12,221 nt of DNA from a virus. Below are positions 1,138-11,039 of this stretch, one piece after another. Position 1 is the first letter of the stretch. Each line of letters starts with the position of its first letter. The notes beneath the pieces were generated by a model. The model worked only from the letters and a program-made list of their open reading frames with translations. It searched no databases and had not been told where the DNA came from. A program made the translations under genes and the position numbers. The stretch is taken from the UHGV virus genome UHGV-0371394. The stretch is one strand, 5' to 3'.

Positions 1138-1143
1138 GCATGT

Positions 1144-1174
1144 AAAAAGGCCCCAACACATGTGCGTGGGGCCT
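1144..1174 (-). terminator. Intrinsic terminator (minus strand): GC-rich hairpin ggcccc...ggggcc followed by T5 on the minus strand
   Basis: Plus-strand aaaaaggccccaacacatgtgcgtggggcct; on the minus strand the hairpin is followed by TTTTT. Lies between the tRNA cluster and the holin gene, back to back with the plus-strand terminator. Confidence 0.5.
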
Positions 1175-1373
1175 GAGAGTATACATGGTTTCAGTCAACT
1201 GCATGGTGCCGGGTGCCTCCCGGTGAATTCAGTACCAGCACCTGAATCCGCGATTATCCCATATACCTACTCGCTGATTGCCCCTCCGCACAGGGGGATT
1301 CACCATGCCAGTTTCTTTTAACAAACTCCCCGCAAAACAGACAACTGTCAACCGTCTGAATTGTGAGACATTT

Positions 1374-1413: not shown

Positions 1414-1490
1414 TGGCGCGTTGTACTGGATTCGAACCAGTGACCGATTGCTTAGAAGGCAATTGCTCTGTCCGGTTGAGCTAACAACGC
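1414..1490 (-). tRNA. tRNA-Arg (anticodon UCU, decodes AGA/AGG), phage-encoded
   Basis: Minus-strand 77-nt sequence GCGTTGT-TA-GCTC-AACCGGACA-GAGC-A-ATTGC-CTTCTAA-GCAAT-CGGTC-ACTGG-TTCGAAT-CCAGT-ACAACGC-G-CCA folds as a canonical cloverleaf: 7-bp acceptor, D loop with GG, TTCGAAT T-loop, encoded CCA. Confidence 0.85.
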
Positions 1491-1503
1491 AGGGTACAGA
1501 TAA

Positions 1504-1580
1504 TGGACCGCCATCGAGGACTCGAACCCCGCGCAACCAGCTTCGAAGGCTGGCGCTCTATCCTGATGAGCTAATGGCGG
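1504..1580 (-). tRNA. tRNA-Arg (anticodon UCG as read; decodes CGA/CGG), phage-encoded
   Basis: Minus-strand CCGCCAT-TA-GCTC-ATCAGGATA-GAGC-G-CCAGC-CTTCGAA-GCTGG-TTGCG-CGGGG-TTCGAGT-CCTCG-ATGGCGG-T-CCA. Acceptor stem perfect; T-stem has one G-U pair; 5' C is unusual, so boundaries and isotype should be confirmed with a tRNA finder. Confidence 0.7.
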
Positions 1581-1587
1581 TATGTGA

Positions 1588-1663
1588 TGGTGGCCCTTGC
1601 TGGATTTGAACCAGCGACCTGGCGATTATGAGTCGCTCGCTCTCACCACTGAGCTAAAGGGCC
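1588..1663 (-). tRNA. tRNA with CAU anticodon, most like tRNA-Ile2 (lysidine, decodes AUA; ileX/ileZ-like) rather than elongator Met
   Basis: Minus-strand 76-nt GGCCCTT-TA-GCTC-AGTGGTGA-GAGC-G-AGCGA-CTCATAA-TCGCC-AGGTC-GCTGG-TTCAAAT-CCAGC-AAGGGCC-A-CCA; the anticodon arm (GCGACTCATAATCGC) closely matches my recollection of E. coli ileX. Ile2 versus Met cannot be settled from the anticodon alone. Confidence 0.8.
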
Positions 1664-2531: not shown

Positions 2532-3527
2532 TCAGGACAGCACACCAATCGCCAGCGCGCGATCGATAAAACGAAATATCAGCTCCAGTTGGGAACCATA
2601 CTTCTCTTCAAATGCCACGGTATCCGCATGCAGCTCGTCGTGATGTTTTCTGCACAAAGGCAACACAAAGAGGTCATGCGCTTTTGTACCCATTCCCCCC
2701 TGACCGTGGCCTATCAGGTGGTGGGGATCATCAGCTGGCTTTCCACAACATGCACACGGCTGTGTCTTAACCCAGCGCGTGTACTTTTCATTAACCCAGC
2801 GGCGACGTTTTGGGCGTAACATAAAAGACTCCGGCGACTCCGGATCCACTTTCAGCGCCAGCACCTTTTTCGCTTTATCCTGGATAATGCTGGTGGCAGG
2901 AACCGAAGGAACAAGATCACTCTCCCGGGTGACAGACGGCACAACAGGCTTCGGTAATCTCAGTGCCTTACGGGCTGCACTTTCCGGTAAGGCATCCGCC
3001 AGGTCATTACGAATCAGCCACCAGCACAGTTCCGGCATTGTCACAACGTGACTGTCATCAAAACCGAGATCACGGCGCACAACAGATAACACCCAGCGGG
3101 CACAGTTATCCGTTGCCATTGATTCCAGCCGTTCCGTGAACTGGTCACGGAGAAGATTGTCACAGTGCCAGCACAGACGGATTGCGCCTGGCGCGTGCCG
3201 CATTGTGGTCATGTTCTCGCTGTGCCAGTCGGAATGAGGCCACTGACAGCCCTTTTCACGAAGTAACCAGCTCTCAAGGCATTCCACGCCACCAGCACGA
3301 CGGATCACCGCCTCATGGCGGAACACGGCCCGAACGGCAGGATCATCCGCCAGCGGTTGTGATGCTGCCGGAACGGCACCACTGGCAAAAGATGAATAAC
3401 GTTCCGGCTCAGGCTCCAGCAGGACACGCCCCTGCATAAACAGGGGCATCAGCTCTGAACCTGGCCTGAACAATACGATCCCCATACGCGGGGCAATTTC
3501 AGGGGTCAGTAGTGCTCTCACAGTCAC
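2532..3527 (-). CDS. DUF968-family protein (YdfU-like) with C-terminal HNH-like Cys/His motif
   Basis: 331-codon ORF; C-terminus CACCGKPADDPHHLIGHGQGGMGTKAHDLFVLPLCRKHHDELH resembles an HNH-type metal-binding nuclease motif. GTG start at 3527 (or 3521) directly after the upstream stop; position immediately upstream of Q as for ydfU in Qin. Confidence 0.75.
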   Translation of the reverse strand: MTVRALLTPEIAPRMGIVLFRPGSELMPLFMQGRVLLEPEPERYSSFASGAVPAASQPLADDPAVRAVFRHEAVIRRAGGVECLESWLLREKGCQWPHSDWHSENMTTMRHAPGAIRLCWHCDNLLRDQFTERLESMATDNCARWVLSVVRRDLGFDDSHVVTMPELCWWLIRNDLADALPESAARKALRLPKPVVPSVTRESDLVPSVPATSIIQDKAKKVLALKVDPESPESFMLRPKRRRWVNEKYTRWVKTQPCACCGKPADDPHHLIGHGQGGMGTKAHDLFVLPLCRKHHDELHADTVAFEEKYGSQLELIFRFIDRALAIGVLS

Positions 3528-8295: not shown

Positions 8296-8392
8296 ATAAC
8301 CTCCACATATTGCGTGATGAGCATATTATTTCACGCAAATATTTTGCGCAAGTTGATTTGCTTAACGCGCAATAAAGAAATGTAATAAACGC
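8296..8392. promoter_or_regulatory. OR region: divergent promoters (pR towards cro, pRM towards cI) with operator half-sites TTGCG/CGCAA
   Basis: Inverted repeat TTGCGTGA-N13-TCACGCAA (8310-8338), palindrome TTGCGCAA (8344-8351) and 15-bp site TTGCTTAACGCGCAA (8358-8372) sharing TTGC-N7-GCAA with the OL sites. Candidate pR on the minus strand: -35 TTGCGC, 17-nt spacer, -10 TAATAT. Candidate pRM: -35 TTGCTT, -10 GTAATA ending about 6 nt before the cI ATG. Confidence 0.6.
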
Positions 8393-9085
8393 ATGAACAT
8401 AGGAAATCGAGTCAGACAACTTCGCCAGGCGAAGAACATGAAAATCGCCGATCTCGCTGAAGCAATAGGAGTGGATGCGGCGAATATCTCACGCCTGGAA
8501 ACAGGTAAGCAGAAACAATTCACTGAACAAGCCCTGAGTAATATTGCCAGGAGCTTAGGTGTTGATATTGCTGATCTCTTTACCTCAGACTTCAAAAGTA
8601 ATACTGTATGTAAAAACAGTATTAGTGAGGATGTTGCGCAGGTGAAGGATGTATTCCGTATTGAAATGCTGGATGTCAGTGCCAGTGCGGGAAATGGCCT
8701 TATCCAGGGCGGTGATGTCATTGATGTGATTCATGCCATTGAATACAGAACTGATAATGCTGTATCGATGTTTGGCGGACGACCAGCCAATCACATTAAA
8801 GTTATCAACGTTCGTGGGGACAGTATGTGTCCAACCATTGAGCCAGGAGATCTCATCTTCGTTGATGTCAGTATCAATCAGTTTGATGGAGATGGTATCT
8901 ATGTATTTGGTTTTGATGATAAAATTTATGTCAAACGACTGCAAATGATACCTGACAAACTACTGGTGATTTCGGATAATCAGATTTACCGTGAATGGGG
9001 AATTACCAGCGAAAATGAACACCGGTTTATGGTCTTTGGAAAGGTCTTAATCAGCCAGTCACAAACCCTTAAGCGACACAATTAA
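8393..9085 (+). CDS. cI: CI-type phage repressor (N-terminal HTH_XRE, C-terminal S24 LexA-like autopeptidase domain)
   Basis: 230 aa; N-terminal HTH (MNIGNRVRQLRQAKNMKIADLAEAIGVDAANISRLETGKQ); C-terminal VRGDSMCPTIEPGDLIFVD...KIYVKRLQ with the Ser/Lys dyad context of S24 peptidases; flanked by the OR and OL operator sets. Confidence 0.9.
   Translation: MNIGNRVRQLRQAKNMKIADLAEAIGVDAANISRLETGKQKQFTEQALSNIARSLGVDIADLFTSDFKSNTVCKNSISEDVAQVKDVFRIEMLDVSASAGNGLIQGGDVIDVIHAIEYRTDNAVSMFGGRPANHIKVINVRGDSMCPTIEPGDLIFVDVSINQFDGDGIYVFGFDDKIYVKRLQMIPDKLLVISDNQIYREWGITSENEHRFMVFGKVLISQSQTLKRHN
8602..8621. promoter_or_regulatory. LexA (SOS) box-like palindrome TACTGTATGTAAAAACAGTA inside the cI coding sequence
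   Basis: Matches CTGT-N8-ACAG with flanking TA on both sides; 17/20 identical to the E. coli SOS-box consensus TACTGTATATATATACAGTA; lies in the cI interdomain linker codons (TVCKNSI). Confidence 0.5.
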
Positions 9086-9105
9086 CCCTTACCTCCTCAT
9101 CAATT

Positions 9106-9127
9106 AGCCACCCGAAGGTGGCTTTTC
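9106..9127 (+). terminator. Intrinsic terminator downstream of cI
   Basis: Hairpin agccacc-cgaa-ggtggct followed by TTTT, 20 nt after the cI stop. Confidence 0.55.
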
Positions 9128-9140
9128 ACTACCCATTAAA

Positions 9141-9195
9141 TTGCATATCTCGCAACAAAACACTTGCATAATGCGCAAATTCATTTTATCTTTCT
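9141..9195 (+). promoter_or_regulatory. OL operators and putative pL (plus-strand early-left promoter)
   Basis: Two 15-bp sites TTGCATATCTCGCAA (9141-9155) and TTGCATAATGCGCAA (9164-9178), 8 bp apart, same TTGC-N7-GCAA architecture as the OR site; candidate pL -35 TTGCAT (9164-9169) and -10 TATCTT (9187-9192). Confidence 0.55.
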
Positions 9196-9603
9196 TTCCA
9201 GACAAACAAACAAGGTACTAACAAAATTTGGTTGTAACACGGCGTATGGCACATGCGTCGTTAGCGGTCTGGGGACGTTAAAGGGGACAATCCACTCCTT
9301 GCTCGGGCAAACAAACCAGGTAGCCGGAATGTGCAAGTCAATGATGATGCTGATAAGACGCCTAACCAGCGTGGCGATTCGGTTTGACGCCTGGGAAGAG
9401 ACCAGGGTGCAACGATGAGGGCATTTATGGAACCGCGACAAAGTGTGGTGCCGTAACTGGCTAAGTGCTCTCAGCGTTGTGGTAATCCGCGAAATGGCGC
9501 GGCGGTAAGTATGGCGGGGTTACTCTTTCCCCGTTGAGGACACCGGATTGTCAGGTTGACCATACGCCTGAGTGACAACCCCACCACAACAGCCACTGCT
9601 TTG

Positions 9604-9650
9604 GCGGTACCAGTTTGTACACTTGCTTCCGGCTGGTACCGCTCTTTTTA
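9604..9650 (+). terminator. Terminator-like hairpin in the pL leader (10-bp stem gcggtaccag/ctggtaccgc, long loop, then TCTTTTTA)
   Basis: Perfect 10-bp inverted repeat 9604-9613 / 9633-9642 followed by a T-rich tract; the 3' side CGCTCTTTTTA also resembles a boxA-like element. Confidence 0.4.
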
Positions 9651-9786
9651 CAAAACAGAGAAGAGCATCACCGGACGACGGGCTCATAACCCAATCCATC
9701 CGGGCGGCTGCCACCGCAGGTGTTCTTCTCTGTTTTGTGGAGAAACCAACCGACCTTGCAGGGTCGATATGATGAGGAGCAGCAAA

Positions 9787-10149
9787 ATGGCTAGCGAACG
9801 CAGTACTGATGTGCAGGCATTTATCGGGGAGCTGGACGGCGGCGTATTTGAAACCAAAATCGGCGCAGTTCTCAGTGAAGTCGCTTCCGGTGTGATGAAC
9901 ACGAAAACCAAAGGTAAGGTCTCACTCAACCTGGAAATCGAACCATTTGATGAGAACCGTGTGAAAATCAAACACAAACTCTCATATGTTCGCCCGACTA
10001 ACCGCGGGAAAATTTCCGAAGAAGACACCACCGAAACGCCGATGTATGTCAATCGCGGTGGTCGCCTGACTATTCTGCAGGAAGACCAGGGACAATTACT
10101 GACTCTTGCCGGTGAACCTGACGGAAAACTACGCGCAGTAGGTCATTAA
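9787..10149 (+). CDS. yfdP: YfdP-like hypothetical protein (first gene of the pL operon)
   Basis: ATG 9787 preceded by GAGGAG at 8-nt spacing; 120 aa; assigned by size and synteny with the following yfdQ/yfdR-like genes (CPS-53 order yfdP-Q-R-S-T, recalled). The track ORF 9556-10149 has a Cys-rich, non-protein-like N-terminal extension that I do not accept. Confidence 0.6.
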   Translation: MASERSTDVQAFIGELDGGVFETKIGAVLSEVASGVMNTKTKGKVSLNLEIEPFDENRVKIKHKLSYVRPTNRGKISEEDTTETPMYVNRGGRLTILQEDQGQLLTLAGEPDGKLRAVGH

Positions 10150-10214
10150 TATCGTTCTTAATTAACTGATTATTTATCTCATCACTGAATATCTTTATAT
10201 AGTGAGGACTTATT

Positions 10215-11039
10215 ATGTCTCAGAACTTAGACGCAACCGCAATTAATCAAATCCATGCCCTTATTTCTGCTCAGGGTGTTAATGAAATTATCAGTAAGAT
10301 TGGTGCCGATGCTGTGGCATTGCCTGAGAATTTCCGCATTCATGATCTGGAAAAATTTAATTTAAATCGCTTCCGTTTCCGTGGTGCGCTTTCCACTGCC
10401 AGCATCGATGACTTTACCCGTTATTCTAAAGATCTTGCAGATGAAGGCACCCGCTGCTTTATCGATGCTGATAATATGCGTGCCGTCAGTGTGCTTAACC
10501 TGGGTACTATTGATGAACCAGGTCACGCAGATAACACCGCCACTCTCAAACTGAAAAAGACAGCACCGTTCTCTGCTCTGTTGTCTGTTAATGGCGAGCG
10601 TAACTCCCAGAAGTCACTGGCAGAATGGATTGAAGACTGGGCCGACTACCTTGTAGGCTTTGATGCTAATGGTGACGCTATTCAGGCAACAAAAGCGGCT
10701 GCAGCTGTCCGTAAAATCACGATTGAAGCAAACCAGACCGCTGATTTTGAAGATAATGACTTCAGCGGCAAACGCTCCCTGATGGAGTCTGTCGAGGCGA
10801 AAACCAAAGATATTATGCCAGTGGCATTTGAATTTAAATGCGTTCCGTTTGAAGGTCTGAAAGAACGTCCGTTTAAATTACGCCTCAGCATTATCACTGG
10901 CGATCGTCCTGTACTGGTTCTGCGCATTATTCAGTTGGAAGCAGTCCAGGAAGAAATGGCTAACGAATTTCGTGATCTGCTTGTTGAGAAATTCAAAGAC
11001 AGCAAAGTAGAAACCTTTATTGGTACTTTCACCGCCTGA
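10215..11039 (+). CDS. yfdQ: YfdQ-like protein (DUF2303 family), function unknown
   Basis: 274 aa, the length I recall for E. coli CPS-53 YfdQ; SD GAGGA upstream of ATG 10215; followed by an HD-domain YfdR-like gene. Confidence 0.7.

Follow-up and report, generated by a model that had tools for sequence, protein, structure and literature searches.

Leaders that carry a small RNA (sRNA) downstream of the early-left promoter (pL) of lambdoid prophages are already known from the dicBF operon of the Qin prophage and from sRNA-17. In Qin, the 190-nucleotide (nt) DicF RNA (Rfam RF00039) has an RNase III-dependent 5' end and a 53-nt species depends on RNase E (PMC10448788), and a 72-nt species has a 3' end made by RNase III about 19 nt beyond the terminator (PMC5069750). 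The 193-nt sRNA-17 was mapped by rapid amplification of cDNA ends (RACE) and Northern blotting in an mEp460-like prophage of E. coli K1 RS218, and its authors drew no link to DicF, RNase III or pL (PMC7719688). Here we compare with these systems the leader at positions 9196-9786 of the virus genome UHGV-0371394, a stretch of 12,221 nt considered on one strand (hereafter the window) that represents a lambdoid prophage of the SfV/mEp460/cdtI type. As far as comparison with its relatives goes, the window copy is a chimeric allele of this kind of leader.

Aligned with related loci, the leader is a mosaic of four conserved, exchangeable RNA modules, namely module A, the H6 stem, an sRNA unit and module C. 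We consider it likely that it is the non-coding pL leader of a prophage lacking N, in which an intrinsic terminator both attenuates transcription and yields the sRNA. The evidence consists of homology, conserved structures, terminator features and identity to a mapped RNA, from which we infer the processing sites, the partial readthrough and any function of module A and of a tRNA-like hairpin in module C. The elements of the leader are the following.

9239-9406, plus strand: core of module A, a conserved structured RNA (alignment A1, 33 sequences), with helices H1 (9240-45/9255-60), H2 (within 9264-72/9316-24), H4 (9358-61/9369-72) and H5 (9390-94/9402-06), putative pseudoknots PK1 (9249-54/9329-34) and PK2 (9364-67/9381-84), and the invariant block GGUAGCCGGAAUGUGCAAG at 9319-9337.

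9410-9479, plus strand: H6, a 14-bp stem CAACGAUGAGGGCA / UGCUCUCAGCGUUG around a variable insert (alignment A5).

9475-9650, plus strand: sRNA unit, by its end sequences and identity an allele of sRNA-17 and of the 190-nt DicF precursor.

9476-9590, plus strand: module B (alignment A2), with a closing stem (9476-83/9583-90), hairpins at 9487-9502 and 9515-9533, and a helix (9545-53/9573-81) crossed by a pseudoknot helix (9509-14/9560-65).

9603-9650, plus strand: intrinsic terminator, from fold and sequence, which forms the sRNA 3' hairpin at the DicF position.

9650-9746, plus strand: module C (alignment A3, 24 sequences), a stem of 16 + 4 bp around two hairpins, followed by GGAGAAAC; the stem pairs 9650-65, a CAU bulge and 9669-72 with 9719-22 and 9723-38.

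9680-9692, plus strand: hairpin GGGCUCAUAACCC, which copies the anticodon stem-loop of initiator tRNA (CGGGCTCATAACCC, identical to E. coli metY).

The mosaic character of the leader is apparent from distant BLAST comparisons, which split it into pieces that each have different relatives. Positions 9226-9483 match P1 between trnI and ban (79% identity) and 9239-9482 match phiV10-like phages (82%), 9476-9598 are 89% identical to the 123 nt directly 5' of dicF in K-12 Qin, the annotated 'dicF-like region' of P1 matches module B (75%), and 9602-9800 match SfV, SfIV and SfII. P1 carries both modules A and B, in an order reversed relative to the window and separated by tRNA genes and tciABC.

The correspondence with the Qin dicBF leader concerns arrangement as well as sequence. 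Both leaders follow a repressor gene and a pL-like promoter and precede the first downstream open reading frame (ORF), and in both a long stem stands 5' of the 123-nt precursor domain and another follows the terminator, such that conserved stems are present at the places corresponding to the DicF processing sites. The window hairpin takes up the position of DicF, 3' of the conserved precursor domain, within a pL-type operon and with an intrinsic terminator; it ends in ...CCGC(C)UUUUU, as DicF does, and UUUGGCGGUAnCAGUUU is common to both. The two differ in that the window sRNA lacks the 5' 12 nt of DicF and has another hairpin loop, that Qin has the ydfABC ORFs in place of the module A core, and that the Qin spacer 3' of DicF is STnc100-like in contrast to module C in the window. 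The hairpin at 9603-9650 was considered as DicF itself and rejected, as the Rfam DicF model gives no match to the window at E values up to 10 (gathering threshold 48 bits; the control, Qin DicF, scores 76.7 bits) and extensive complementarity to ftsZ is absent. The predicted duplex with the ftsZ start region reaches -24.5 kcal/mol, compared with -38.5 kcal/mol for DicF and a shuffle mean of -31.1 kcal/mol, and is weaker than 96% of its own shuffles; targeting of ftsZ by the window sRNA was rejected because the pairing is worse than that of the shuffles.

The window sRNA and sRNA-17 share one locus, flanked by the repressor gene and yfdP. The primers used for RACE and Northern blotting show that sRNA-17 runs from CGTTGTGG to GGTACCGCTCTTTT, the latter being the terminator described here. 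The 5' end of sRNA-17 corresponds to window position 9475; both of its ends recur unchanged in the window, where they agree with the 'full length' primers, and over the final 65 nt, which take in the terminator hairpin, the window does not differ from mEp460 / sRNA-17. The closing stem GUUGUGGU/ACCACAAC is also the same, whereas pairwise alignment shows the body of about 110 nt within it to be unrelated, an mEp460-type cassette in sRNA-17 and the Qin-type module B in the window. These ends and the likeness to Qin bear out one of the alternatives that an earlier note on this DNA had offered, a riboregulator or sRNA, with 9475-9650 as an allele of the mapped sRNA-17 and of the 190-nt DicF precursor.

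Module B is itself a conserved RNA, with 92.5% of cells paired in alignment A2 (22 sequences) compared with 33-55% when the partners are slid, and with 7 compensatory pairs. The terminal hairpins that follow it vary among relatives and include the canonical DicF hairpin, the window type and at least eight others. The closing stem holds unrelated inserts of about 100-120 nt (window 9476-9590 versus mEp460, locus L002, 4378-4510), and the tRNA-Arg gene of phiV10-like phages has its start in the final bases of the same motif, GUUGUGG. To judge from these insertions, the closing-stem slot behaves like a cassette site. Module B was also considered as a tRNA, since it fills the tRNA-Arg slot of the phiV10-like phages, but no tRNA model matches it and the analogy is positional only.

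The terminator at 9603-9650 is formed by GGCGGUACCAG (9603-9613) paired with CUGGUACCGC (9633-9642) and followed by UCUUUUUA (9643-9650), and a 64-nt stretch around it folds at -21.2 kcal/mol. A simple terminator scan missed this hairpin solely because its loop is 19 nt long; fold and sequence agree with the earlier note, which had marked a terminator-like hairpin at 9604-9650. In relatives, 78 distinct variants of a hairpin with U tract occupy the slot before module C, and in 66 of them the hairpin ends no more than 3 nt from the U tract, which is the canonical form. What did not survive comparison is the proposal that the 3' side of this hairpin, CGCTCTTTTTA, is boxA-like: relatives have CCGTCCTTTTT or CCGCCCTTTTT at the equivalent position, with CGCTCTT swapped for CGTCCTT or CGCCCTT, and because this position varies the string is simply the 3' arm of the terminator with its U tract. 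A boxA reading of the H6 3' strand was dropped as well, as that strand is not conserved as boxA. Comparison with relatives revealed no conserved lambda-type boxA with boxB hairpin in the leader, and a canonical boxA lies downstream of module A in only 1 of 96 unique copies. In that copy, a module A variant at locus L196, a hairpin and then the canonical boxA of rrn type, TGCTCTTTAACAATC, come after the core, about 195-290 nt from the anchor at 3234.

The loop of the window terminator, ACUUGCUUCCGG (9620-9631), is complementary to the module A block CCGGAA-UGU-GCAAGU (9325-9339) over 12 bp with a 3-nt bulge. A target scan with the hairpin loop within the window found no site beyond those of shuffled queries (best cis site, the module A anchor, -24.8 kcal/mol; shuffled mean, -28.9 kcal/mol), and the complementarity may be due to chance.

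Upstream of the sRNA unit, H6 is 92% paired in alignment A5, with 6 compensatory pairs. The RACE-mapped 5' end of sRNA-17 falls in the H6 3' strand, and counting 190 nt back from the Qin DicF terminator leads to the Qin counterpart of the same strand. On this positional evidence H6 is probably an RNase III site. In some copies the variable insert of H6 contains what looks like part of a tRNA: in SPN1S (L008) it holds the T-arm-like CTGGTTCAATTCCAG, and a similar GGTTCGATTCC occurs in L211, which suggests tRNA fragments inside some H6 copies.

The signals that flank the leader are as follows.

9106-9127, plus strand: likely cI terminator from its sequence, hairpin AGCCACC-CGAA-GGTGGCT with a T run directly 3' of the cI stop.

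9141-9155 and 9164-9178, no strand assigned: left operator (OL), two operator copies TTGC-N7-GCAA, TTGCATATCTCGCAA and TTGCATAATGCGCAA (repeat family D1).

9164-9192, plus strand: candidate pL by sequence, with -35 TTGCAT (9164-9169), a 17-nt spacer and -10 TATCTT (9187-9192).

9750-9795, plus strand: from sequence, a hairpin CCGACCUUGCAGGGUCGA (9750-67) preceding the ribosome-binding site, the Shine-Dalgarno GAGGAG (9774-79) and the yfdP start codon (9787).

In SfII and SfV a rho-independent terminator is annotated at the position equivalent to 9106-9127. The OL operators match a third copy in the cro-cI spacer (8358-8372), and the predicted pL start site lies near 9199. A consensus promoter (TTGACA-18-TACATT) is found in mEp390 about 40-50 nt 5' of its module A, a spacing like that of pL here. 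The JS316 annotation starts yfdP at the ATG equivalent to 9787, a choice that the Shine-Dalgarno GAGGAG also favours. Two further ATGs in frame with yfdP (9769 and 9772) precede 9787 and overlap the end of the pre-RBS hairpin.

With these elements in place, the course of early-left transcription may be outlined. When the CI-like repressor leaves OL, RNA polymerase would transcribe module A, H6, module B and the hairpin at 9603-9650, and most pL transcripts would stop at the intrinsic terminator (9650). Cleavage of H6 by RNase III would then release an sRNA of about 175 nt (9475-9650), equivalent to the 193-nt sRNA-17 and to the 190-nt DicF precursor; RNase E may trim it further. Polymerases that read through would continue into yfdP-yfdQ-yfdR...xis-int, and on these long transcripts the 20-bp stem of module C would provide a second RNase III site, where a cut would part the sRNA from the mRNA and define where the yfdP message begins, as happens in the lambda N leader and with the 72-nt DicF species. 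The terminator would thus act as an attenuator that makes the sRNA and limits early-left expression, with no N-like protein involved. In lambda, too, pL is followed by an untranslated structured leader, with nutL and an RNase III-sensitive hairpin ahead of N, in which a long double-stranded stem lies directly 5' of the ribosome-binding site of the first early-left gene; unlike lambda, the window has no N gene and no conserved boxA/boxB, and its leader contains an intrinsic terminator.

Replacement of the sRNA-17 body by a chloramphenicol resistance (Cm) cassette raised yfdP reads about 95-fold and also raised yfdR (Table 1 in PMC7719688). The rise in yfdP fits a barrier acting in cis and is a hint in that direction, confounded by the cassette. 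Several points weigh against this account of the leader. The yfdP rise may come from the Cm cassette's own promoter; module B is unlike the body of sRNA-17 as mapped; transcript ends, processing and readthrough for the window sequence rest on inference from sequence; and an efficient terminator would need to be bypassed in some way for expression of xis and int. Furthermore, the authors of the sRNA-17 study treat module A DNA as the ArcA-regulated promoter of sRNA-17 (PMC7719688), and if it is, the 5' end of the sRNA is primary and not processed.

The 'promoter fragment' of that study equals module A, and a gel shift with ArcA was obtained on the fragment equivalent to 9226-9463, together with a Northern signal for sRNA-17 in an uninduced lysogen (PMC7719688). 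That module A DNA is mainly an ArcA-controlled promoter or regulatory region for an sRNA starting at 9475, to which pL transcripts are irrelevant, is nevertheless unlikely. The compensatory changes in five module A helices indicate selection on RNA structure and not on a protein-binding DNA site, and the sRNA 5' end lies inside the conserved double-stranded H6 stem. Module A and sRNA-17 are co-transcribed, because the quantitative reverse-transcription PCR amplicon of the same study runs from the 9226 equivalent into the sRNA (PMC7719688). The ArcA gel shift required 20-80 µM protein, and a promoter scan found no sigma-70 consensus match at 9197-9475 and only two in 8900-10300, near 8916-8980.

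Module A, which under the favoured model of a terminating, sRNA-yielding pL leader would be the first module of the transcript, is a well-supported structured RNA on covariation, missing from Rfam and without known function. In alignment A1, 99% of the cells of H1, PK1, H2, H4, PK2 and H5 are paired, compared with 26-50% with slid partners, 11 pairs show compensatory changes, and the covariation score of 0.247 (0.107 for shuffles) was matched by 0 of 500 shuffles. Of the two putative pseudoknots, PK1, being invariant and partly fixed by the search pattern, is unproven, and PK2 has a single covarying pair, present in four sequences. In Rfam 15, no family matches module A in the window and 14 related loci, and a covariance model of its core (R1) matches only the window and P1, with no match in HK022 (nun-cI-cro region), SfV, SfII or Qin.

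The module is present in more than 100 phage contigs, with P1 and phiV10-like phages among the carriers. A search with the invariant 19-mer GGTAGCCGGAATGTGCAAG yielded over 120 viral contigs, and a 16-mer retrieved Kosakonia, Kluyvera, Klebsiella, Citrobacter, Phytobacter and Erwinia genomes. Among 96 unique copies, the next element is tRNA-Arg in 19 and module B in 18, and a tRNA with a CAU anticodon precedes module A in 9. A terminator-like hairpin follows in 69 of the 96 (median 325 nt from the anchor), and 58 of these 69 terminators end in ...CCGC(C). The plan in phiV10 is module A, tRNA-Arg, a DicF-style terminator and an ORF.

Invariant loops and putative pseudoknots suggest that module A binds a conserved host machine, and it lies about 40 nt after pL here and after the promoter of the repressor gene in mEp390. 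In a phage without N, with a cargo that is often untranslated RNA and a terminator that usually follows, module A could be a cis-acting processive antiterminator, put-like but unrelated to put, which replaces N against both the 9603-9650 terminator and Rho. Antitermination of this kind is disfavoured because SfV and SfII carry the same terminator, together with module C and the yfdP-int genes, in the absence of module A, and we regard it as doubtful. In P1, moreover, module A lies downstream and not upstream of the dicF-like terminator of the ban operon. A cut in H6 would sever module A from the transcript, although this need not matter, as put RNA stays bound to the polymerase.

In HK022, terminator readthrough promoted by put depends on the beta-prime zinc-binding domain. 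HK022 and the window phage both lack N and both have a structured RNA close to pL, but put RNA comprises about 70 nt in two stem-loops and begins at the transcript start (PMC9378689), compared with about 170 nt and five helices for module A, which begins about 40 nt downstream of the start site. A relation to put was rejected on this difference in architecture and on the absence of any R1 match in the nun-cI-cro region of HK022. Put-like or host-factor antitermination, another alternative in the earlier note, thus drew no support from these comparisons, nor from the boxA-like string, which is not conserved.

Module C, which would be reached only by polymerases that pass the terminator, is a second well-supported structured RNA by the same covariation analysis, without database entry or known function. 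It is 94% paired in alignment A3 (37-55% with slid partners) and has 7 compensatory pairs, a result matched by 0 of 500 shuffles. Its stem encloses a CCGGR/YCCGG helix, a variable hairpin and GGGCUCAUAACCC. Over 14 nt (CGGGCUCAUAACCC) this tRNA-like hairpin is identical to the metY anticodon stem-loop, the three G-C pairs included, and GGGCUCAUAACCC is exact in 59 unique flanks identified with a hairpin-independent anchor, with a variant loop in 9 more module-C-like flanks. The hairpin is nearly invariant across diverged copies of module C, and it may serve as a mimic or decoy towards factors recognising tRNA-fMet.

The STnc100 family (RF02076) touches the same locus in relatives. The Rfam model has no match in the window leader itself; a full-length match (140 bits) lies at window 1138-1337 on the minus strand, where a region at 1414-1663 (minus strand) is also listed, directly downstream of three tRNA genes (Met-CAT, Arg-TCG and Arg-TCT). 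The STnc100 and tRNA region appears to be a late region on the strand of the Q gene, and is another instance, in the same prophage, of RNA cargo followed by a structured spacer. Sub-threshold STnc100-like matches of 34-40 bits (gathering threshold 47) are found in SfV (L005, 2336-2551), SfII (L004, 3278-3493) and Qin (L014, 1133-1342). In SfV and SfII the match replaces modules A and B in the leader and ends in the same terminator hairpin, and in Qin it fills the dicF-dicB spacer. A barrier role of the leader in its SfV version may be the subject of work by Roberts (2007), which reportedly deals with transcription-termination immunity in SfV.

Taken together, modules A and C allow a broader proposal, which we advance tentatively as possible rather than probable: module A may define a new class of pseudoknotted leaders in lambdoid, P1-like and epsilon15/phiV10-like phages of Enterobacterales that acts on the transcription or processing machinery, with the anticodon-arm copy in module C as a functional mimic. 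The common cassette plan would be module A, an RNase III stem, tRNA or sRNA cargo and a DicF-type terminator. Module A might, for example, be a put-independent antiterminator, an anti-Rho element or a chaperone for the folding or processing of untranslated cargo, and the mimic might sense, or act as a decoy for, factors recognising tRNA-fMet, such as VapC-type nucleases, IF3 or the 30S P site. Other conserved structured prophage RNAs whose function is unknown, GOLLD and ROOL, also often lie beside tRNA genes; they are much larger than the leader modules and occur in other phyla, and the likeness is one of context only. Their Rfam models have no match in the leader, and there is no sequence relation.

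The interval 9196-9786 is not coding, to judge from its reading frames and their variation. All ATG ORFs starting within 9196-9768 have at most 29 codons, as the earlier note had said of its candidate peptides (under 30 amino acids (aa)), and its further statement that no ORF of 60 codons or more has a credible start is upheld, with the qualification that non-ATG ORFs of at least 60 codons exist (TTG 9164-9418, GTG 9572-9772, and minus-strand 9181-9441 and 9520-9714), none with a match in a Pfam search. Old phage annotations do call ORFs in the leader, and PHROGs profiles match 9572-9772 (phrog_33599, E = 5e-17) and the minus-strand ORF 9520-9714 (phrog_3651, E = 5e-38), both families of unknown function. 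That the leader encodes protein, be it a peptide from the ATG at 9329, the GTG ORF or the minus-strand ORF 9520-9714, is very improbable all the same. The phrog_3651 profile is 162 aa long, would extend antisense through yfdP and is reduced to 64 aa in the window, and both families probably go back to spurious ORF calls in phage genomes, for instance cdtI gp40 and mEp460_036. The spacing of two conserved points in module C takes 11 values in 132 unique relatives and covers all three modulo-3 classes, across the 96 module A copies the invariant ATG at 9329 opens an ORF of anywhere between 4 and 96 codons, and the sequence variation of the leader is compensatory for RNA helices. In the 99% identical JS316 prophage, the PGAP annotation calls no gene in the corresponding gap of about 700 nt.

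The earlier note's description of the leader as GC-rich with stable hairpins agrees with a GC content of 53.1%, compared with 42.3% in cI and 45.3% in yfdP-yfdQ, and with a fold of the entire interval at -228 kcal/mol (z = -4.7 versus dinucleotide shuffles). ARAGORN detected neither tRNA nor tmRNA in the leader. One of the checks proposed earlier, an RNA family scan, was run against Rfam 15 at gathering and permissive thresholds; it covered the window, sections of it and 17 related loci, and produced no match within the leader. The compensatory changes sought in homologous leaders were found for module A, H6, module B and module C.

The absence of an N gene after pL is confirmed, as ORF inspection, Pfam and PHROGs reveal no N-like protein, translated similarity to N is also absent, and the relatives SfII, SfV and SfIV are reported to be without N (PMC3851460). 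A degraded N region, here understood as a decayed N/nutL remnant with chance hairpins, could be invoked from the position between pL and the first gene and from the CGCTCTT string; we give it almost no credence. The string is not conserved, and for each module dozens to hundreds of phage contigs show conservation with covariation, through compensatory base changes.

A 701-nt query around the leader is 99% identical to E. coli JS316, whose annotated order is Q ... replication genes, ymfL, a cro-like gene (minus strand), a CI-like repressor gene (plus strand), the gap of about 700 nt and yfdP-yfdQ-yfdR...int, an order shared with mEp460, SfII and SfV. The query is covered to at least 80% in 1,008 of 5,426 complete E. 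coli genomes and in parts in 4,740, and it also has matches in Stx2c, Stx2a and cdt phages. EcoCyc has no annotation for the leader because CPS-53 of K-12 keeps only its final 19 nt (window 9768-9786).

The present comparison links DicF and sRNA-17, which have been studied separately, as alleles of one exchangeable early-left leader cassette in lambdoid prophages. Viewed as such a cassette, sRNA-17 is predicted to arise by RNase III processing of pL transcripts and not from an ArcA-regulated promoter of its own, and the question of how early-left genes are expressed past the terminator in N-less lambdoid phages of the SfV type becomes testable. With the leader present in Stx2c and cdt phages, its regulation bears on prophage induction and on the carriage of virulence genes.

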